From the NCBI GenBank assembly GCA_028875125.1, contig JAPPGC010000094.1, positions 15,761-79,760 of the forward strand: DNA of 64,000 bases, read 5' to 3'. The stretch is from Bacteroidota bacterium (lineage in GTDB: Bacteria; Bacteroidota; Rhodothermia; Rhodothermales; Bin80). How positions within the stretch are numbered: position 1 is the first letter of the stretch; every line of letters begins with the position of its first letter. The notes beneath the pieces were generated by a model, which worked only from the letters and a program-made list of their open reading frames with translations, made no database searches and was not told the DNA's origin. Positions 6,496 through 12,769 of the stretch are shown one piece after another. Position numbers and translations under genes: made by a program.

Positions 6496-8943
6496 TTAAG
6501 CACGTAACTCTGCGTCAAATTGTGCAGAAAGAGTTGTAACAATGTTTTGAACAACGTGGTCAATCTCTTGATCTCGAAGGGTCCGATTTGCGCCAAAGCG
6601 CAATGAAAATGCCACACTTTTTTTGCCTGGTGCAATTCCCTTACCCGTATAGATATCAAATATGTCCACGTTCTTGAGCAGTTTCCGGCCAGCCTCGCGG
6701 ATTTTTTTGATCATGTCACCAACAGGCTGTTGCGAATCCACGACCATAGCAATATCCCGCTCAACAACAGGGTAACGTGGTACGGGCGAATAGACGGCAG
6801 CTGGCTGTTCTTCACATATCAGTGCCAATCTGGTCCAATTAAACGTGGCAAAGAAAACAGGATCAGGCAAGTCGTAGGCTGCCTGTATCTCATCCGAAAG
6901 ACGAGCGATAGTCCCGATCCATTTTTCATTAACGGAAAGTGTTATGTGATGGGCCGTAATATCTGTCGGCACAACGCTCGGCTCCATCTGAAGAAAATCA
7001 AGATTCAATAGGCTTAGCAGCTTCTCCACATCGCCCTTGATGTCAAAGAAGTCCGCCAAAGGGATGCTGCTGTCCCAACTCTGTGGTCGAACAGGGCCAC
7101 TAATTCCGAATAGGAGCACTTCATATTCAGAGTAATTTTCTATGAAGGCTGCTTCATGCCCACTGAGGTGAAAGACATGCCCCAATTCATAAAACCGGAG
7201 CGCCCGTCGTCCGTGGTTAGCATTGTGTTGCATAACATTCAACATGCCCGGCAGGAGTGAAGGTCGCAAGGTTGCCATGGAGCGAGACACCGCATTCAAG
7301 GTGCGTACAGGCGGATAATCTGCTGCAGTGACCGCTTGGCTGAACTGCAGGGCCTGTTCATCTGGCAACAGACTGTTTGTATAGATTTCTCGGAATCCAT
7401 GACCATTCAGATAGGCGTGAACACGCTCACGCAGCAAGTCAATGGGGCGCGTGACCGGAACAGATACAGGTAACGGTGCTGACTGCTGTGCCTTGATTTG
7501 ATGGAACCCATAGATACGTGCAATCTCTTCTATCAGATCAATCTCCAAATGGATGTCAGGCCGGTAGCTAGGTATCGTGCATGAGATTGTGTCACATGCT
7601 TCCTGTGGGTCAAATCCCAGCGATGTTAGGATTCGCAGGATATCCTTTCGTGGGATTCGTATACCTAGGATTTTGGGTACACGGGCAACCCTTAAATCAA
7701 GCCTGGTTGCTTTCGGAGGGCCGGGATGTGCATCCACGATCCCTGAGGTGACCGATCCACCTCCCAGCTCCGCAATCAGTGCGGCTACACGTACAGTGGC
7801 CCATGCCTGACTATCTGTATCAACCCCTCGTTCGAATCTGTAGGATGCATCTGTTGACATGCCCAAAGCCCTGGCAGACTTTCTTGTCCGGGAAGGGCAG
7901 AACCATGCGCCTTCAATCAACACATTGGACGTGGTTTCGTCGACCTCAGAGTTTTCTCCTCCCATGATGCCTCCAATCGCAACCGGCCGCTCGCCATCAC
8001 AAATCAGGACAACTCCCTCAGGCAACAAATGCTTCTTGCCATCAAGCGTGGTAAACTCCTCGTCCTTGACAGATTCCCGGACTACTATTCTTTGTTCAGC
8101 TATACGGTCATAGTCGAATGCGTGTAAAGGCTGCCCGCATTCATACATGACATAATTGGTCGCATCAACAACATTGTTGATGGAACGAAGCTCAATGGCT
8201 TCCAGCCGTTGCTTTAACCAGGCAGGGGAGGGACCAACTTTTACGCCTGTGACAATCACTGCCGCATACCGGCGACACAAGTCGGGACACTCGATGTCGA
8301 CCTTGATATGTTGGGTCGTTTCACCACCATCTGATGGAATGGTGATCTCGGGACGTTTTAGCGGCACATTTTGCAGTGCGGAAACGTCTCGAGCTACCCC
8401 TATGTGACTGGTTGCATCCGCCCGGTTTGGGGTGATGGCAATGTCCAGAACCGTATCATTCAGCTTCTTTCCCTCTCTTTCCATATAGTCAAGCAAGGGC
8501 TCGCCAATCACCGCGTTTCCTGATAGGACCATGATACCGCTGTGGTCATCGGACAGTCCAAGTTCATCTTCTGCACAGATCATCCCCATGGATGTCTGGC
8601 CACGGATTTTGGATTTTTTGATCTTGAGTACTTTATCGTCAATGGTCAGATGAGTGCCGATTGTTGCTACTGGTACCCGTTGGTCAGTGGCAACATTGGG
8701 AGCACCGCAAACGATTGGGATTAGTTCACCCGTTCCCAGATCAATATCGCAAAGCGTCAGGCGGTCAGCGTTGGGGTGCGGACGCACGGATACCACGCGT
8801 CCTACGAAGACGCCGTCCAACGATGGACCGAGATGCAGAATCTCCTCAACCTCAAGCCCAGACATCGTCAGAGCATGTGCAAGGTCCTCCGGGGAATACT
8901 CATGCGCTACATACTCGGACAGCCAGTTATAAGAGATCTTCAT
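6496..8943 (-). CDS. pheT: phenylalanine--tRNA ligase beta subunit
   Basis: 815 aa. It starts MKISYNWLSEYV and carries tRNA-binding, B3/4, B5 and FDX-ACB regions. It lies 5 nt downstream of pheS. Confidence 0.97.
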   Translation of the reverse strand: MKISYNWLSEYVAHEYSPEDLAHALTMSGLEVEEILHLGPSLDGVFVGRVVSVRPHPNADRLTLCDIDLGTGELIPIVCGAPNVATDQRVPVATIGTHLTIDDKVLKIKKSKIRGQTSMGMICAEDELGLSDDHSGIMVLSGNAVIGEPLLDYMEREGKKLNDTVLDIAITPNRADATSHIGVARDVSALQNVPLKRPEITIPSDGGETTQHIKVDIECPDLCRRYAAVIVTGVKVGPSPAWLKQRLEAIELRSINNVVDATNYVMYECGQPLHAFDYDRIAEQRIVVRESVKDEEFTTLDGKKHLLPEGVVLICDGERPVAIGGIMGGENSEVDETTSNVLIEGAWFCPSRTRKSARALGMSTDASYRFERGVDTDSQAWATVRVAALIAELGGGSVTSGIVDAHPGPPKATRLDLRVARVPKILGIRIPRKDILRILTSLGFDPQEACDTISCTIPSYRPDIHLEIDLIEEIARIYGFHQIKAQQSAPLPVSVPVTRPIDLLRERVHAYLNGHGFREIYTNSLLPDEQALQFSQAVTAADYPPVRTLNAVSRSMATLRPSLLPGMLNVMQHNANHGRRALRFYELGHVFHLSGHEAAFIENYSEYEVLLFGISGPVRPQSWDSSIPLADFFDIKGDVEKLLSLLNLDFLQMEPSVVPTDITAHHITLSVNEKWIGTIARLSDEIQAAYDLPDPVFFATFNWTRLALICEEQPAAVYSPVPRYPVVERDIAMVVDSQQPVGDMIKKIREAGRKLLKNVDIFDIYTGKGIAPGKKSVAFSLRFGANRTLRDQEIDHVVQNIVTTLSAQFDAELRA

Positions 8944-8948
8944 CGCAA

Positions 8949-9980
8949 TTAGAACTGTGCTAAAAATCGCACGTCATTTTCGTAAAAGACGCGGATGTCA
9001 TCGATACCGTACCGGAGCATGGCGGGGCGCTCTATTCCCATACCGAAGGCGTATCCGGTGTAGCGTTCGGAATCAATACCTACGGCTTCTAGAACGTTAG
9101 GGTGAACCATGCCGCTGCCTAGGATTTCCATCCAGCGACCGCCTTCTGGATGATCAGGCAAGTCCCACCAGATGTCTACTTCACCGCTTGGTTCCGTGAA
9201 CGGAAAGAAGCTGGGGCGGAATCGCATCTTTACTTCGTCACCAAAAAATGCACGTGCGAAGCCGGCGAGCGTGTGTTTAAGGTCGGCCATGGTCACGCCC
9301 TCATCCACGACCAGTCCTTCAACTTGATGAAACAGGCAATAGGACTTATAGGTGATGGCCTCATTGCGAAAAACTCGCCCTGGCGCAATTAGACGGAACG
9401 GGGGTTCTCCAGCCATCATTGTCCGAATCTGTACGGGAGAGGTATGTGTGCGCATCATGGCTCCGGCCCGGCCTTTTCCCGGCTCTTCAACAAAGAGTGT
9501 ATCCTGCATGTCTCGGGCGGGGTGGTCTGCCGGAAAATTCAGTGCGGTAAAGTTGTGCCAGTCATCCTCAATTTCGGGTCCCTCGGCAATCGCGAAGCCC
9601 ATGTGCTTAAATATATCTGTGATCTTGGCCAGGGCAAGCGTAATGGGATGCCTGGACCCGGCCCATTGGCTGCGTCGGCCGGGTAGTGTAAGGTCAATGT
9701 CCCAGGTGTTTGTAGTCTTTACTCGGTGTTGCTCAATGGCAGACTCAAGTGCCGTTTGGGCTTCTTTGCGCAGAGCATTAAGCAGCTGTCCGGCGCTACG
9801 CCGATCCTGTTTGGGGAGATCGGGGATGGTCTTGAAGAGCTTGGGGATCACGCCGCGTCGTTGTCCTAGGAACCGGATACGGAATTCCTCGGACTTGGCG
9901 GGTGTGTCGAGTTTTGCTCCCGCAATCTCCTCAGAGAAGGTTGCAGCGACCGTTTTCAGATTCTCTAGATTTGTCTCCAT
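8949..9980 (-). CDS. pheS: phenylalanine--tRNA ligase alpha subunit
   Basis: 343 aa with class II motifs ([45 protein letters not shown]). Confidence 0.97.
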
Positions 9981-9986
9981 TCTACC

Positions 9987-10109
9987 AAAACAAGAAACCC
10001 GCCAAGCCTGCGTGCGCAGGGGCGGGAATGTTTCTCACCAATCTACATTCGGCCCCTAGCCAAGCAAGGTGCCGCTAAAAAAGAATAAACTGGATATTTG
10101 GGTCATCAT
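9987..10109 (-). promoter_or_regulatory. candidate Phe-leader-peptide transcription attenuator upstream of pheST
   Basis: A minus-strand mini-ORF at 10109..10056 encodes MMTQISSLFFFSGTLLG*, and its ATG overlaps the rplT stop (TAATG). It is followed by a strong hairpin CCCGCC-CCUGCG-CA-CGCAGG-CUU-GGCGGG (10026-9998) and UUUCUUGUUUU (9997-9987), which ends 7 nt before the pheS ATG. An alternative pairing is possible between GCUAGGGGC (10060-10052) and GCCCCUGC (10023-10016). Confidence 0.55.
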
Positions 10110-10459
10110 TAGGTACCGTGTGCTTCCTGAACAACACGCGCGAAGGTTGCAGGCTCATTCATGGCTAAATCAGCAAGCACCTTTCGATTGAGCACGATTC
10201 CCTCTCTGCGGAGGGCACCTGCCAGACGGGAGTAGGTTGTACCATTCAGCCGGGCAGCTGCATTAATCCGGATAATCCAAAGCCGACGGAACTGCTGTTT
10301 ACGTTTACGGCGGTCCCGGTACGAGTACTGGAGTCCCTTTTCGACCGAGTGTTTAGCTACGGTGTAGATCTTACTCCGGCTGCCCCAGTATCCTTTGGCC
10401 ATGCCAAGGACTTTCCTGCGTCGTTGGCGTGAAGCTACTCTATTGCGTGCGCGTGGCAT
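10109..10459 (-). CDS. rplT: 50S ribosomal protein L20
   Basis: 116 aa. MPRARNRVASRQRRRKVLGMAKGYWGSRSK is a canonical L20 N-terminus. Confidence 0.97.
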   Translation of the reverse strand: MPRARNRVASRQRRRKVLGMAKGYWGSRSKIYTVAKHSVEKGLQYSYRDRRKRKQQFRRLWIIRINAAARLNGTTYSRLAGALRREGIVLNRKVLADLAMNEPATFARVVQEAHGT

Positions 10460-10491
10460 AATTATCAGCGAATTTAGGGATCACCTATCCA

Positions 10492-10692
10492 TCATTTGGA
10501 CGAACCCAGTAGACGATTCATGCGCGGCTCATCGCTTTTGTCGACGAGGGTTTTCTTACCAAGCTCCCGTTTGCGCTTACGGCTTTTCTTAGTCAGGATA
10601 TGGCTTTTGAAAGCATGCGCGCGCTTCAGGCGCCCGGATGCAGTTCGGACAAATCGTTTTTTGGCCCCGCTGTTGGATTTTGTCTTCGGCAT
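10492..10692 (-). CDS. rpmI: 50S ribosomal protein L35
   Basis: 66 aa. [14 protein letters not shown]...HILTKKS is canonical L35. Confidence 0.95.
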
Positions 10693-10761
10693 AGTTCCGA
10701 AATAATCAAGGCAACGTTCAACCGTGGCTGGATAAATTGTGTTCCAGCAAAACGTCGTTTT

Positions 10762-11283
10762 TCACTTGGTTTTCTGGGGAGCAAGTATGACGGTCATGCG
10801 CCGGCCCTCCATCCGCGGTTCCTGATCCAACTGGGCAACATCCTTCAATGCATCAATGAAGCGTGCCAGGATAATCATCCCCTGTTCCTTATAGATAATA
10901 TCCCGTCCTCTGAACTGTACATAGGCACGCACCTTGTGGCCGTCGGAAAGAAATTCATGGGCGTGCTTCGTTTTGAACTGGAAGTCGTGTGTATCGGTGC
11001 GGGGCCGAAAACGAATTTCTTTGAGTTGCGTGTGATGCTGTTTCTTGCGGGCATCGCGCTCCTTCTTATTTTTCTCGTAGAGAAACTTGCCGTAGTCCAT
11101 AATCTTACAGACTGGAGGATCAGCATTTGGTGCAATCTCCACCAGATCCATGGACTGTTCGTCAGCCATATCCAAGGCATCCTGCAGGTCGTACACACCA
11201 TGTTTACCTCCTGGATCCACTACGCGGACTACGTCTGCCTCAATGGCGTCGTTAATTCGTATCTGTATGCGTTTTGCGATGAT
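10762..11283 (-). CDS. infC: translation initiation factor IF-3 with a non-AUG start (exact start uncertain)
   Basis: The track ORF begins at an internal GTG (11220). The frame stays open upstream to 11292 and encodes ..NIIAKRIQIRINDAIEADVVRVVDPGG.., the normal IF-3 N-terminal domain. Only ATC, ATA and ATT codons are available as starts. Confidence 0.9.
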   Translation of the reverse strand: MIAKRIQIRINDAIEADVVRVVDPGGKHGVYDLQDALDMADEQSMDLVEIAPNADPPVCKIMDYGKFLYEKNKKERDARKKQHHTQLKEIRFRPRTDTHDFQFKTKHAHEFLSDGHKVRAYVQFRGRDIIYKEQGMIILARFIDALKDVAQLDQEPRMEGRRMTVILAPQKTK

Positions 11284-11334
11284 GTTATAAGTTTAGTTTC
11301 GAAGAAAGACAATCCAAGGTATTAACCTTGTCAG

Positions 11335-11408
11335 TGGGTCCTAATGGATTCGAACCATCGACCTCTACGATGTCAACGTAGCGCTCTAACCAACTGAGCT
11401 AAGGACCC
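11335..11408 (-). tRNA. tRNA-Val (anticodon GAC)
   Basis: Minus strand reads GGGTCCTTAGCTCAGTTGGTTAGAGCGCTACGTTGACATCGTAGAGGTCGATGGTTCGAATCCATTAGGACCCA. It has a 7-bp acceptor stem, the anticodon loop TTGACAT and a GTTCGAATC T-loop. CCA is not encoded. Confidence 0.9.
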
Positions 11409-11677
11409 CTGCACACATCACTGCAAATTACGGACTTTAACGCTATAGATGTATTATGTGCACAGGGTTAGCTTCTGTTAGTAGTAAAAGGAATGTCAAA
11501 TACGGAATTTCACGGGGCTAGTTCCTGCCTGAGTTTTTGAGTCGTTTGGTAACCGCACTTGTGGTCTCCACCAGAACTCAATTTACGGGCTACTACTACA
11601 CAAGATGAGTTCTCTCATTTTGCGAAAGTTTGAGCTTTTATCCACTACTACGGCAATAATACCAAAAAGACTAAACC

Positions 11678-12769
11678 ATGAATTATCCCATTAAATCAGT
11701 CACTTTCACGCTTCTGATCGTCCTGTCGGCTGCTGGATGTGGCACGGAAGCTCCTCGCTCTATCACAGTCGTGTCTTGGGGAGGCTCGTATGGACAAGCC
11801 GTCAACGAGGCGGTGAACATTCCCTTCGCCGAGGAGATGGGCATCAATGTTGGGGTCGAGGACTATAACGGAGGCCTCGCCCAAATCCGCGCACAGGTGG
11901 AAATTGGCAATATTCACTGGGATGTTGTGGATCTGGAATTTGCCGACGCGGTCCGGGGATGCGATGAAGGACTCCTGGAACCGATAGACATCGACATATT
12001 GCCGCCTGGCCCCGATGGAACACCCGCTATTGAGGATTTTGTGGCCGAAACCCTGACCGAATGTGGTGTAGGCAATCTCTATGGGGCAAACGTGTATGCT
12101 TACAGTGAGGCGACCATTCCTGGTCCCAAGCCTACCACGTTGGCTGATTTTTTCGACTTGGAGACCTTCCCAGGTCGCCGGGGAATGAGGCGAGTACCGC
12201 AGGTAAATCTTGAATGGGCATTGATCGCAGACGGGGTACCCCTGGATCAGGTGTACGCCACACTGGATACTCCCGAGGGAGTTGATCGTGCTTTCGCGAA
12301 ACTCGAAACGATCAAGGACGAAGTGATCTGGTGGGAAGCAGGTGCCCAGCCGCCACAAATGCTGGCCGACGGGGAAGTGATCATGACCTCAGCCTACAAC
12401 GGTCGGATCTTCAACGCACAGGTGCTTGAAGATCAGCCGTTCGCGATTGTATGGGACGGACAGGTGTTCGATGTGGCACAGATCGGAATAGTCCGAGGTA
12501 CTCCACGCCTCAAGGAGGCCCTGGAATATGTTGCCTTCGCAACCAGCGCTGAATCATTGTCGCGGGTTGCGAGGCGAATCTCATATTCCCCAGCGCGTAA
12601 GTCTGGGATGCTACTAGTGACTACTCACGTGGTGGCTGGCGTAGACATGGCACCACACATGCCTGCGAGTCCCGCCAATATTCAGCGCGCCATGCGTTTC
12701 AACTCAGCGTGGTGGGTTGATCACCAGGACGAAATGAACGAGCGATTTAGCGCATGGCTGGCCCGCTAA
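11678..12769 (+). CDS. ABC-transporter periplasmic substrate-binding lipoprotein (PotD/PotF-like family 1 SBP), orphan
   Basis: 363 aa with the lipobox LSAAGCG. The segment ITVVSWGGSYGQA...HWDVVDLE... is typical of polyamine-type SBPs. No permease or ATPase gene is adjacent. Confidence 0.8.
   Translation: MNYPIKSVTFTLLIVLSAAGCGTEAPRSITVVSWGGSYGQAVNEAVNIPFAEEMGINVGVEDYNGGLAQIRAQVEIGNIHWDVVDLEFADAVRGCDEGLLEPIDIDILPPGPDGTPAIEDFVAETLTECGVGNLYGANVYAYSEATIPGPKPTTLADFFDLETFPGRRGMRRVPQVNLEWALIADGVPLDQVYATLDTPEGVDRAFAKLETIKDEVIWWEAGAQPPQMLADGEVIMTSAYNGRIFNAQVLEDQPFAIVWDGQVFDVAQIGIVRGTPRLKEALEYVAFATSAESLSRVARRISYSPARKSGMLLVTTHVVAGVDMAPHMPASPANIQRAMRFNSAWWVDHQDEMNERFSAWLAR

Follow-up and report, generated by a model that had tools for sequence, protein, structure and literature searches.

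Does the short spacer between rplT and pheS of an uncultured Rhodothermales bacterium hold a device through which phenylalanine (Phe) supply controls the genes for phenylalanyl-tRNA synthetase (PheRS)? The spacer lies in a stretch of 64,000 nucleotides from contig JAPPGC010000094.1; this whole stretch is referred to here as the window, and all window coordinates are on its minus strand. In that orientation the gene order is a tRNA gene, infC, rpmI, rplT, the spacer of 128 nt, pheS and pheT. A first-pass annotation of the sequence had read the spacer as a classical attenuator, in which a Phe-codon open reading frame (ORF) decides between a terminator and an antiterminator. Comparative loci, the geometry of the leader stop codon relative to a G-run and folds computed under ribosome masks support that reading, and we consider it likely that the spacer element is a ribosome-mediated (leader-peptide) Phe transcription attenuator of pheST.

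The candidate attenuator between rplT and pheS

The leader ORF (MMTQISSLFFFSGTLLG) begins at an ATG whose A is also the last base of the rplT stop codon (TAA at 10111-10109, hence TAATG) and carries three consecutive Phe codons, TTC TTT TTT, which form the proposed sensing site. Both the 17-codon ORF on the rplT stop and its Phe run had been described at first pass, and both were confirmed in the sequence. Ribosomes that have just finished rplT probably translate this leader. The window contains four TTYTTYTTY sites on its two strands, this being the only one in a short ATG-initiated ORF, and when the entire window was scanned for further leader-like ORFs in which a codon run precedes a terminator, no credible candidate besides the pheST leader emerged.

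Downstream of the leader, the predicted terminator hairpin (CCCGCC-CCTGC / GCAC / GCAGG-(CTT bulge)-GGCGGG) occurs once in the window, where no occurrence is expected. The earlier description of an 11-bp hairpin stands, with its start placed 29 rather than 30 nt past the leader stop, and the tract that follows ends 6 nt before the pheS ATG, where 7 nt had been counted. A simple terminator scan did not list this hairpin because the 3-nt bulge interrupts its stem. Folded as a single sequence, the full-length spacer shows no unusual stability (z = -0.49), as expected of an RNA with alternative structures; for a switch the score is uninformative.

The successive pairings 1:2, 2:3 and 3:4 among the four regions of the spacer RNA (Table 1) are mutually exclusive. 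An unconstrained fold holds the 1:2 hairpin (10074-10064 with 10060-10050) together with the terminator 3:4. When RNAfold was run without the terminator 3' arm, or with a mask in place of a ribosome stalled at the Phe codons, region 2 paired with region 3. The antiterminator so predicted contains the pairing suggested by the first-pass annotation, GCUAGGGGC (10060-10052) with GCCCCUGC (10023-10016), within GCCCCUG(C)GC spanning 10023-10014, and is lengthened by a second helix, GAAUGU (10050-10045) with ACAUUC (10031-10026), to a total of 15 bp and -19.7 to -20.4 kcal/mol. Under a mask corresponding to a ribosome on UAG, the terminator alone was left, at -23 kcal/mol. The same three attenuator states came out of such ribosome-mask folds for the window and for eight relatives belonging to four clades.

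According to the proposed mechanism, infC-rpmI-rplT transcripts would run on into the leader, and ribosomes leaving rplT would reinitiate on the leader ATG. With ample Phe-tRNA, the ribosome would reach UAG and cover region 2, the 3:4 hairpin would form and transcription would terminate at ~9990, before the pheS ATG. With scarce Phe-tRNA, it would stall on UUC-UUU-UUU and cover region 1, leaving region 2, at least 17 nt downstream, free to form the 2:3 antiterminator (~-20 kcal/mol), and the polymerase would continue into pheST. Without translation, 1:2 would form and 3:4 would terminate. The switch would raise synthetase expression when charged tRNA-Phe is scarce. Since the U-tract lies 6 nt from the pheS ATG, there is no room for a promoter of pheS's own, and all pheST transcription in the window genome must therefore cross the terminator; pheT is co-transcribed with pheS.

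Table 1. Genes and predicted RNA features of the infC-pheT locus in the window.
Feature	Coordinates	Strand	Remarks
tRNA gene	11408-11335	minus	Rfam tRNA, 72 bits; directly upstream of infC
rpmI	10692-10492	minus	
rplT (ribosomal protein L20, 116 aa)	10459-10109	minus	orthologues carry Pfam Ribosomal_L20
Leader ORF	10109-10056	minus	ATG 10109-10107; 17 sense codons, then UAG (10058-10056)
Three consecutive Phe codons	10085-10077	minus	proposed sensing site
Region 1 (CGGCACCUUGC)	10074-10064	minus	directly after the Phe codons; predicted to pair with region 2 unless covered by a ribosome
Region 2 (GCUAGGGGCCGAAUGU)	10060-10045	minus	5' strand of the predicted antiterminator; contains the leader stop codon
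Antiterminator loop	10044-10032	minus	varies among relatives
Region 3 (ACAUUC CC GCCCCUG C GC)	10031-10014	minus	3' strand of the predicted antiterminator; overlaps the terminator 5' arm
Terminator hairpin (regions 3:4)	10026-9998	minus	6 + 5 bp, 3-nt bulge, GCAC loop
Region 4	10011-9998	minus	followed by Us
U-tract UUUCUUGUUUU	9997-9987	minus	DNA TTTCTTGTTTT; then GGTAGA and the pheS ATG
pheS (343 aa)	9980-8949	minus	proposed regulated gene
pheT (815 aa)	8943-6496	minus	downstream of pheS; Pfam domains assigned in orthologues

The anticodon loop of the window tRNA was read as UUGACAU, giving the anticodon GAC (Val). In Rhodothermus (L138), the gene upstream of infC is thrS.

Conservation of the leader and its proposed switch geometry

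The nearest relatives of the window PheS come from uncultured Rhodothermales, with 73% identity to the best species-representative genome and up to 96% among metagenome proteins. Metagenomes were queried with the hairpin alone (TCCCGCCCCTG N3-8 CAGG NNN GGCGGG), so that the resulting sample is unbiased towards leader features. Among the 52 matches, 35 adjoin rplT and/or pheS on Rhodothermales-like contigs. The remaining 17 comprise 16 that resemble chance hits within GC-rich sequence and one (L090) that follows the end of an ORF; a T-tract was found in none of these 17, and a repeated element was rejected as an explanation of the hairpin on this ground. Together with genome loci and loci reached through close PheS homologues, the metagenome matches made up 44 distinct Rhodothermales rplT-pheS spacers. 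In 38 of them, namely the window and 37 other loci (L001 and loci among L081-L141), a short ORF that contains Phe codons ends just before the hairpin. Relatives that keep the hairpin and lack the ORF or its Phe codons had been named at first pass as the finding that would speak against attenuation; the ORF with Phe was kept in these 38 of 44 spacers, and the predicted element is conserved across the order Rhodothermales. It is also present in the cultured Rhodothermus bifroesti, where the leader reads MKPQTSIRFFTACAASL.

The leader ORF is absent from all public annotations of related loci that were examined. Some PheS proteins (P0004, P0005, P0010 and others) are annotated at 353-365 aa rather than 343, and in L083, L084 and L085 rplT is annotated at 122 aa rather than 116, its 3' end overlapping the leader start by 16-19 nt.

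The 38 leaders are 13-32 codons long and start with ATG in all but one case (37/38). Phe is their commonest residue, accounting for 102 of 672 positions (15.2%), while the RplT and PheS proteins encoded on either side contain 730 in 14722 (5.0%; binomial p = 2e-23); in the other two frames of the leaders its share is 5.5-8.3%. Three Phe residues occur in 22 leaders, two in 11, four in three and one in two, so that at least two are present in 36/38 leaders, and likewise in 11 of the 12 clusters formed at 70% nucleotide identity. The peptides themselves differ between clades (FFFSGTLLG, YRFFTGAFPNQGR, FRFAFAGSTF). The consensus is xxS(S/A)FFF(S/I/L/F)GT(L/S)xG in the window clade and MTPNxxYRFFTGAFPN(Q/L)GR in the largest clade, each followed directly by the stop codon; a third clade is represented by MPLIRAPFRFAFAGSTFRTPQGR, and singletons include MYQVFFDPCSSQG, MTFFATITFSGQSHRLQGN and the R. 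bifroesti leader. Only the Phe codons, the frame, the position of the stop and the three-helix geometry are kept between clades. Within the window clade, the Phe codons vary almost only synonymously (TTC/TTT), the exception being L081, in which the third Phe is replaced by Ile (ATC); Gly codons vary at the third position (GGC/GGT/GGA), and the other codons change non-synonymously. Across the family the T-run measures 3, 6, 9 or 12 nt, with indels that keep the frame, and in one clade in-frame UUU triplets recur every 6 nt (FRFAFA).

Codon usage at the sensing site is skewed as well. UUU and UUC are used 82:20 in the leaders as against 193:537 in flanking rplT and pheS (Fisher p = 7e-26, calculated on non-independent samples). 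This preference for UUU would fit a stalling site; alternatively, the U-run may be constrained at the RNA level. The codon before the Phe run ends in A nearly always, whatever it encodes (CGA, GCA, UCA, UUA or CCA; 10088-10086 in the window), and CGAUUUUUUA is almost invariant in the largest clade. A -1 frameshift at CGA-UUU-UUU-A was considered and rejected, the heptamer not being in the X XXY YYZ frame. In the folds, a segment upstream of the Phe run pairs with one just past region 2 (CCAGUUUAU with GUAGAUUGG in the window, GCGCAUAUCG with CGGUAUGUGC in L095), an extra outer helix that may explain conservation upstream of the Phe run.

Geometry downstream of the Phe codons is equally regular. 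Each of the 38 leaders has a G-run, mostly GGGGCG or GGGGC, whose sequence complements that of the terminator arm CGCCCC(UG) and whose start falls -8 to +7 nt from the first stop-codon base; between the last codon of the Phe run and the G-run lie 17-81 nt (median 26). From this placement it follows that a ribosome at the stop codon would cover the G-run and one stalled at the Phe codons would not. A 1:2 hairpin, in which the G-run pairs with an upstream C-rich segment, is predicted in 37/38 leaders, and region 1 sequences differ between clades; this pairing was assessed by single-strand folding from the Phe run to the G-run, a duplex swap being unsuitable since the two sequence windows overlap in short leaders. 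Structures equivalent to the antiterminator were predicted in all 35 leaders that were folded. The 2:3 duplex is stronger than every control taken from the same locus in 27/38, and each region 2 pairs better with its own partner than with swapped ones in 28/38 (-18.2 vs -16.7 kcal/mol; Wilcoxon p = 6e-5 on non-independent data, in a test that covers the variable flanks).

An alignment of 22 sequences shows the terminator 100% paired and includes one pair that covaries (CG in 10, UA in 10, GC in 1 and UG in 1); in most relatives the terminator is followed by A/U and then U7-8. Its arms are nearly invariant across PheS identities of 58-100%, an invariance that, we argue, fits a 5' arm needing two partners. 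In L113, L089 and L120 a second terminator 3' arm with its own T-tract (CCGGCCCGGCGGGTTTTTT) stands ~10-35 nt past the U-tract and may be a tandem terminator or a remnant of duplication.

Leaders commonly sit close to the end of rplT: in 25/38 the start lies -19 to +9 nt from the rplT stop, often in an ATGA, TAATG or TGATG overlap. Two loci depart from this arrangement. In L116 (22-513, 498-571; PheS 92% identical), the place of rplT is taken by the 3' end of a transposase gene of the ISL3 family (PF01610, E = 9e-39), with the Phe run, all of regions 1-4 and pheS preserved and a new in-frame ATG giving MESEIDLSTKKDEEPFFFSGTSLG; judged by its sequence, this is a natural disruption of the putative coupling to rplT. 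In L136, repeated GGAAAATAG-like units are inserted over the first ~85 nt after the rplT stop, before a typical leader (MTPNAVYRFFTVAFPNQGR). Because this insertion separates rplT from the leader, coupling to rplT would not be obligatory.

Weighing the alternatives

Several observations weigh against a Phe attenuator. The hairpin is kept without a convincing leader in six spacers (L002/L100, L003, L106, L121, L007 and L006): in L002/L100 and L003 an indel breaks any common frame, L007 has one Phe and a weak G-run, and L006 has a different hairpin and no Phe leader. Because these six keep the hairpin, it can evidently serve, at least as predicted, as a plain, leaky terminator. The L006 spacer also carries ~5 tandem copies of a ~13-nt unit (GGTGTCCAGCGAT and variants) downstream of its hairpin (CCCGTCCACC TTTT GGCAGGCGGG). 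Two leaders (L110 and L128) hold a single Phe codon, and the UUU bias, together with the conserved CGAUUUUUUA of the largest clade, could partly reflect constraint on RNA rather than on codons. In a MAFFT alignment the antiterminator core is 84% paired, with no covariation and a score not above shuffles, the missing covariation signal being due to invariant columns; RNAalifold recovers the terminator only. By our reading of the folds, clades differ in the register of the 1:2 helix, which precludes a column-wise test, and the U-tract of the window (UUUCUUGUUUU) is interrupted. Finally, the mechanism would presuppose transcription-translation coupling in this phylum.

Part of this evidence would equally suit a leaky intrinsic terminator of infC-rpmI-rplT, with pheST expressed by constitutive read-through and a mini-ORF of no regulatory role. 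The six leaderless spacers and the lack of covariation in the antiterminator favour it, as does the fact that loci of Ignavibacteria, Chlorobi and Melioribacter as a rule have a hairpin and T-tract with no Phe ORF. Such a terminator leaves unexplained, however, why an ORF is found in 38/44 spacers, with an ATG in 37/38 and Phe as the sole conserved feature of the peptide, why this ORF in every case stops next to a G-run that complements the terminator arm, why T-run indels preserve the frame and why the arms are far more conserved than in ordinary terminators; we regard this explanation as very unlikely. A control ORF that reports general translation flux, that is, the rate of L20 translation conveyed by stop-start coupling, rather than Phe, would account for the leader starts clustered around the rplT stop and for leaders with only one or two Phe codons. 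Against it stand the threefold excess of Phe over background, its place as the most frequent residue and sole feature common to unrelated leaders, the identity of the regulated genes, which encode the Phe-tRNA ligase, and the preference for the non-preferred codon UUU, which fits a stalling site. Taken as a replacement for Phe sensing it is unlikely, and the two are not mutually exclusive.

That the conserved peptide (e.g. YRFFTGAFPNQGR) acts as a nascent arrest peptide or functional micropeptide, its codons being no sensor of tRNA charging, appears highly improbable. Within the largest clade both the peptide and its nucleotides (CGAUUUUUUACC) are indeed very conserved, but between clades no motif except Phe is shared (FFFSGTLLG, RFFTGAFPNQGR, FRFAFAGSTFRTPQGR, MYQVFFDPCSSQG), the non-Phe positions of the window clade change non-synonymously and nucleotide conservation falls largely in pairing regions 1 and 2.

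The attenuator reading also bears on the history of the junction. A scan of genomes placed rplT immediately before pheS in Rhodothermales, Ignavibacteria, Melioribacter and Chlorobiaceae, and not in Bacteroidia. In the Ignavibacteria, Melioribacter and Chlorobiaceae loci (L008-L078) the spacer measures 60-100 nt and holds just a plain hairpin with its T-tract; Phe ORFs were absent from the rplT-pheS spacers examined in Ignavibacteria, Chlorobi and Melioribacter. This distribution suggests that a plain terminator at the junction is the older state, to which the mini-ORF would have been added in Rhodothermales. Dependence of pheST on read-through may be general in the Fibrobacteres-Chlorobi-Bacteroidetes (FCB) group.

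A broader proposition, which we put forward tentatively as plausible though short of probable, is that the Rhodothermales elements form an order-wide, independently evolved family. Its sensor ORF would lack initiation signals of its own and be loaded by ribosomes terminating on rplT, its 1-4 Phe codons would be biased to UUU, and PheRS synthesis would depend on L20 translation as well as on the charging of tRNA-Phe. If true, such a family would mean that transcription and translation are tightly coupled in an FCB lineage poor in Shine-Dalgarno sequences, and would illustrate how insertion of a mini-ORF can make an amino-acid sensor of a plain inter-operon terminator like that of Ignavibacteria and Chlorobi.

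Comparison with known systems

The closest counterpart is pheM of E. coli (RF01859, Phe_leader), which shares the gene order infC-rpmI-rplT-leader-pheS-pheT, the regulated genes and the succession of a Phe-rich short ORF and alternative antiterminator and terminator hairpins. The two differ in layout. In E. coli, the rplT terminator and 122 nt separate the rplT stop from the pheM start, whereas the window leader starts on the rplT stop; that gap also contains a separate promoter. There are 5 Phe in the 14 codons of pheM as against 3 in 17 in the window leader and 1-4 across the Rhodothermales family, and the E. coli attenuator ends ~200 nt before pheS, whereas the window U-tract ends 6 nt before the ATG. 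The RF01859 model scores E. coli pheM, used as a positive control, at 75 bits (gathering score 55). With the same model, window positions 8500-12500 gave no match at E up to 10, and L138, L095 and L001 gave none at the gathering score. An Rfam scan of the same 8500-12500 interval at E up to 10 returned the tRNA alone and assigned no family to the spacer; Rfam 15 holds no matching family. Hence the Rhodothermales element, although it would work like pheM, is not a member of RF01859 and shows no detectable resemblance to pheM in sequence or structure; its origin is probably independent of pheM because the intermediate FCB lineages have no leader. The suggestion of an analogous, apparently independent device made at first pass is thus upheld by the negative RF01859 searches and by the plain hairpins of the Ignavibacteria and Chlorobi loci.

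The Proteobacterial attenuators trpL, hisL, leuL, thrL, ilvL and pheL follow the same four-region logic with enriched cognate codons. Use of rare regulatory codons is known from the E. coli leu leader, leuL placing a less-preferred codon at the sensing site as the Rhodothermales leaders do. Unlike trpL-type systems, which have their own promoter and Shine-Dalgarno sequence, the Rhodothermales leader would be fed by termination-reinitiation from a ribosomal protein gene; regulatory codons are few in its sensor ORF, the leader stop lies inside region 2 and the host belongs to the FCB group.

Two other regulators of these genes were considered and rejected. The pheS T-box of Firmicutes obeys the same logic, low tRNA-Phe charging leading to antitermination upstream of pheST, but it binds uncharged tRNA directly and needs no ORF, and the window spacer has no Rfam T-box match at E up to 10. 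The L20 leader (Rfam RF00558) and the L20 operator of rpmI-rplT are likewise structured RNAs controlling expression of the same operon. These elements lie upstream of infC or rpmI and bind L20, whereas the window element lies downstream of rplT and contains an ORF; an L20-binding operator was set aside on this position and for want of an Rfam match.

Vitreschak and co-workers (2004) and Lopatovskaya and co-workers (2010) are said to have predicted some attenuators in Bacteroidetes/Chlorobi. In the literature searched, no leader of this kind was described for Rhodothermales, or for pheST outside Proteobacteria, although an earlier prediction is possible. Documented leader-peptide attenuation clusters in Proteobacteria and some Actinobacteria and Firmicutes; one report gave such systems as then known only in Proteobacteria and Actinobacteria, besides its own Firmicutes case (PMC2965389).

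If the attenuator reading is true, ribosomes would track RNA polymerase closely in this phylum, which bears on the debate over transcription-translation coupling. Dozens of genomes would contain an unannotated translated mini-ORF, gene callers extending rplT or pheS into the spacer instead, and the element would offer a compact natural Phe-responsive part, testable in cultured Rhodothermus. Beside pheM in Gammaproteobacteria and the T-box in Firmicutes, it would be a third independent solution to the control of pheST.

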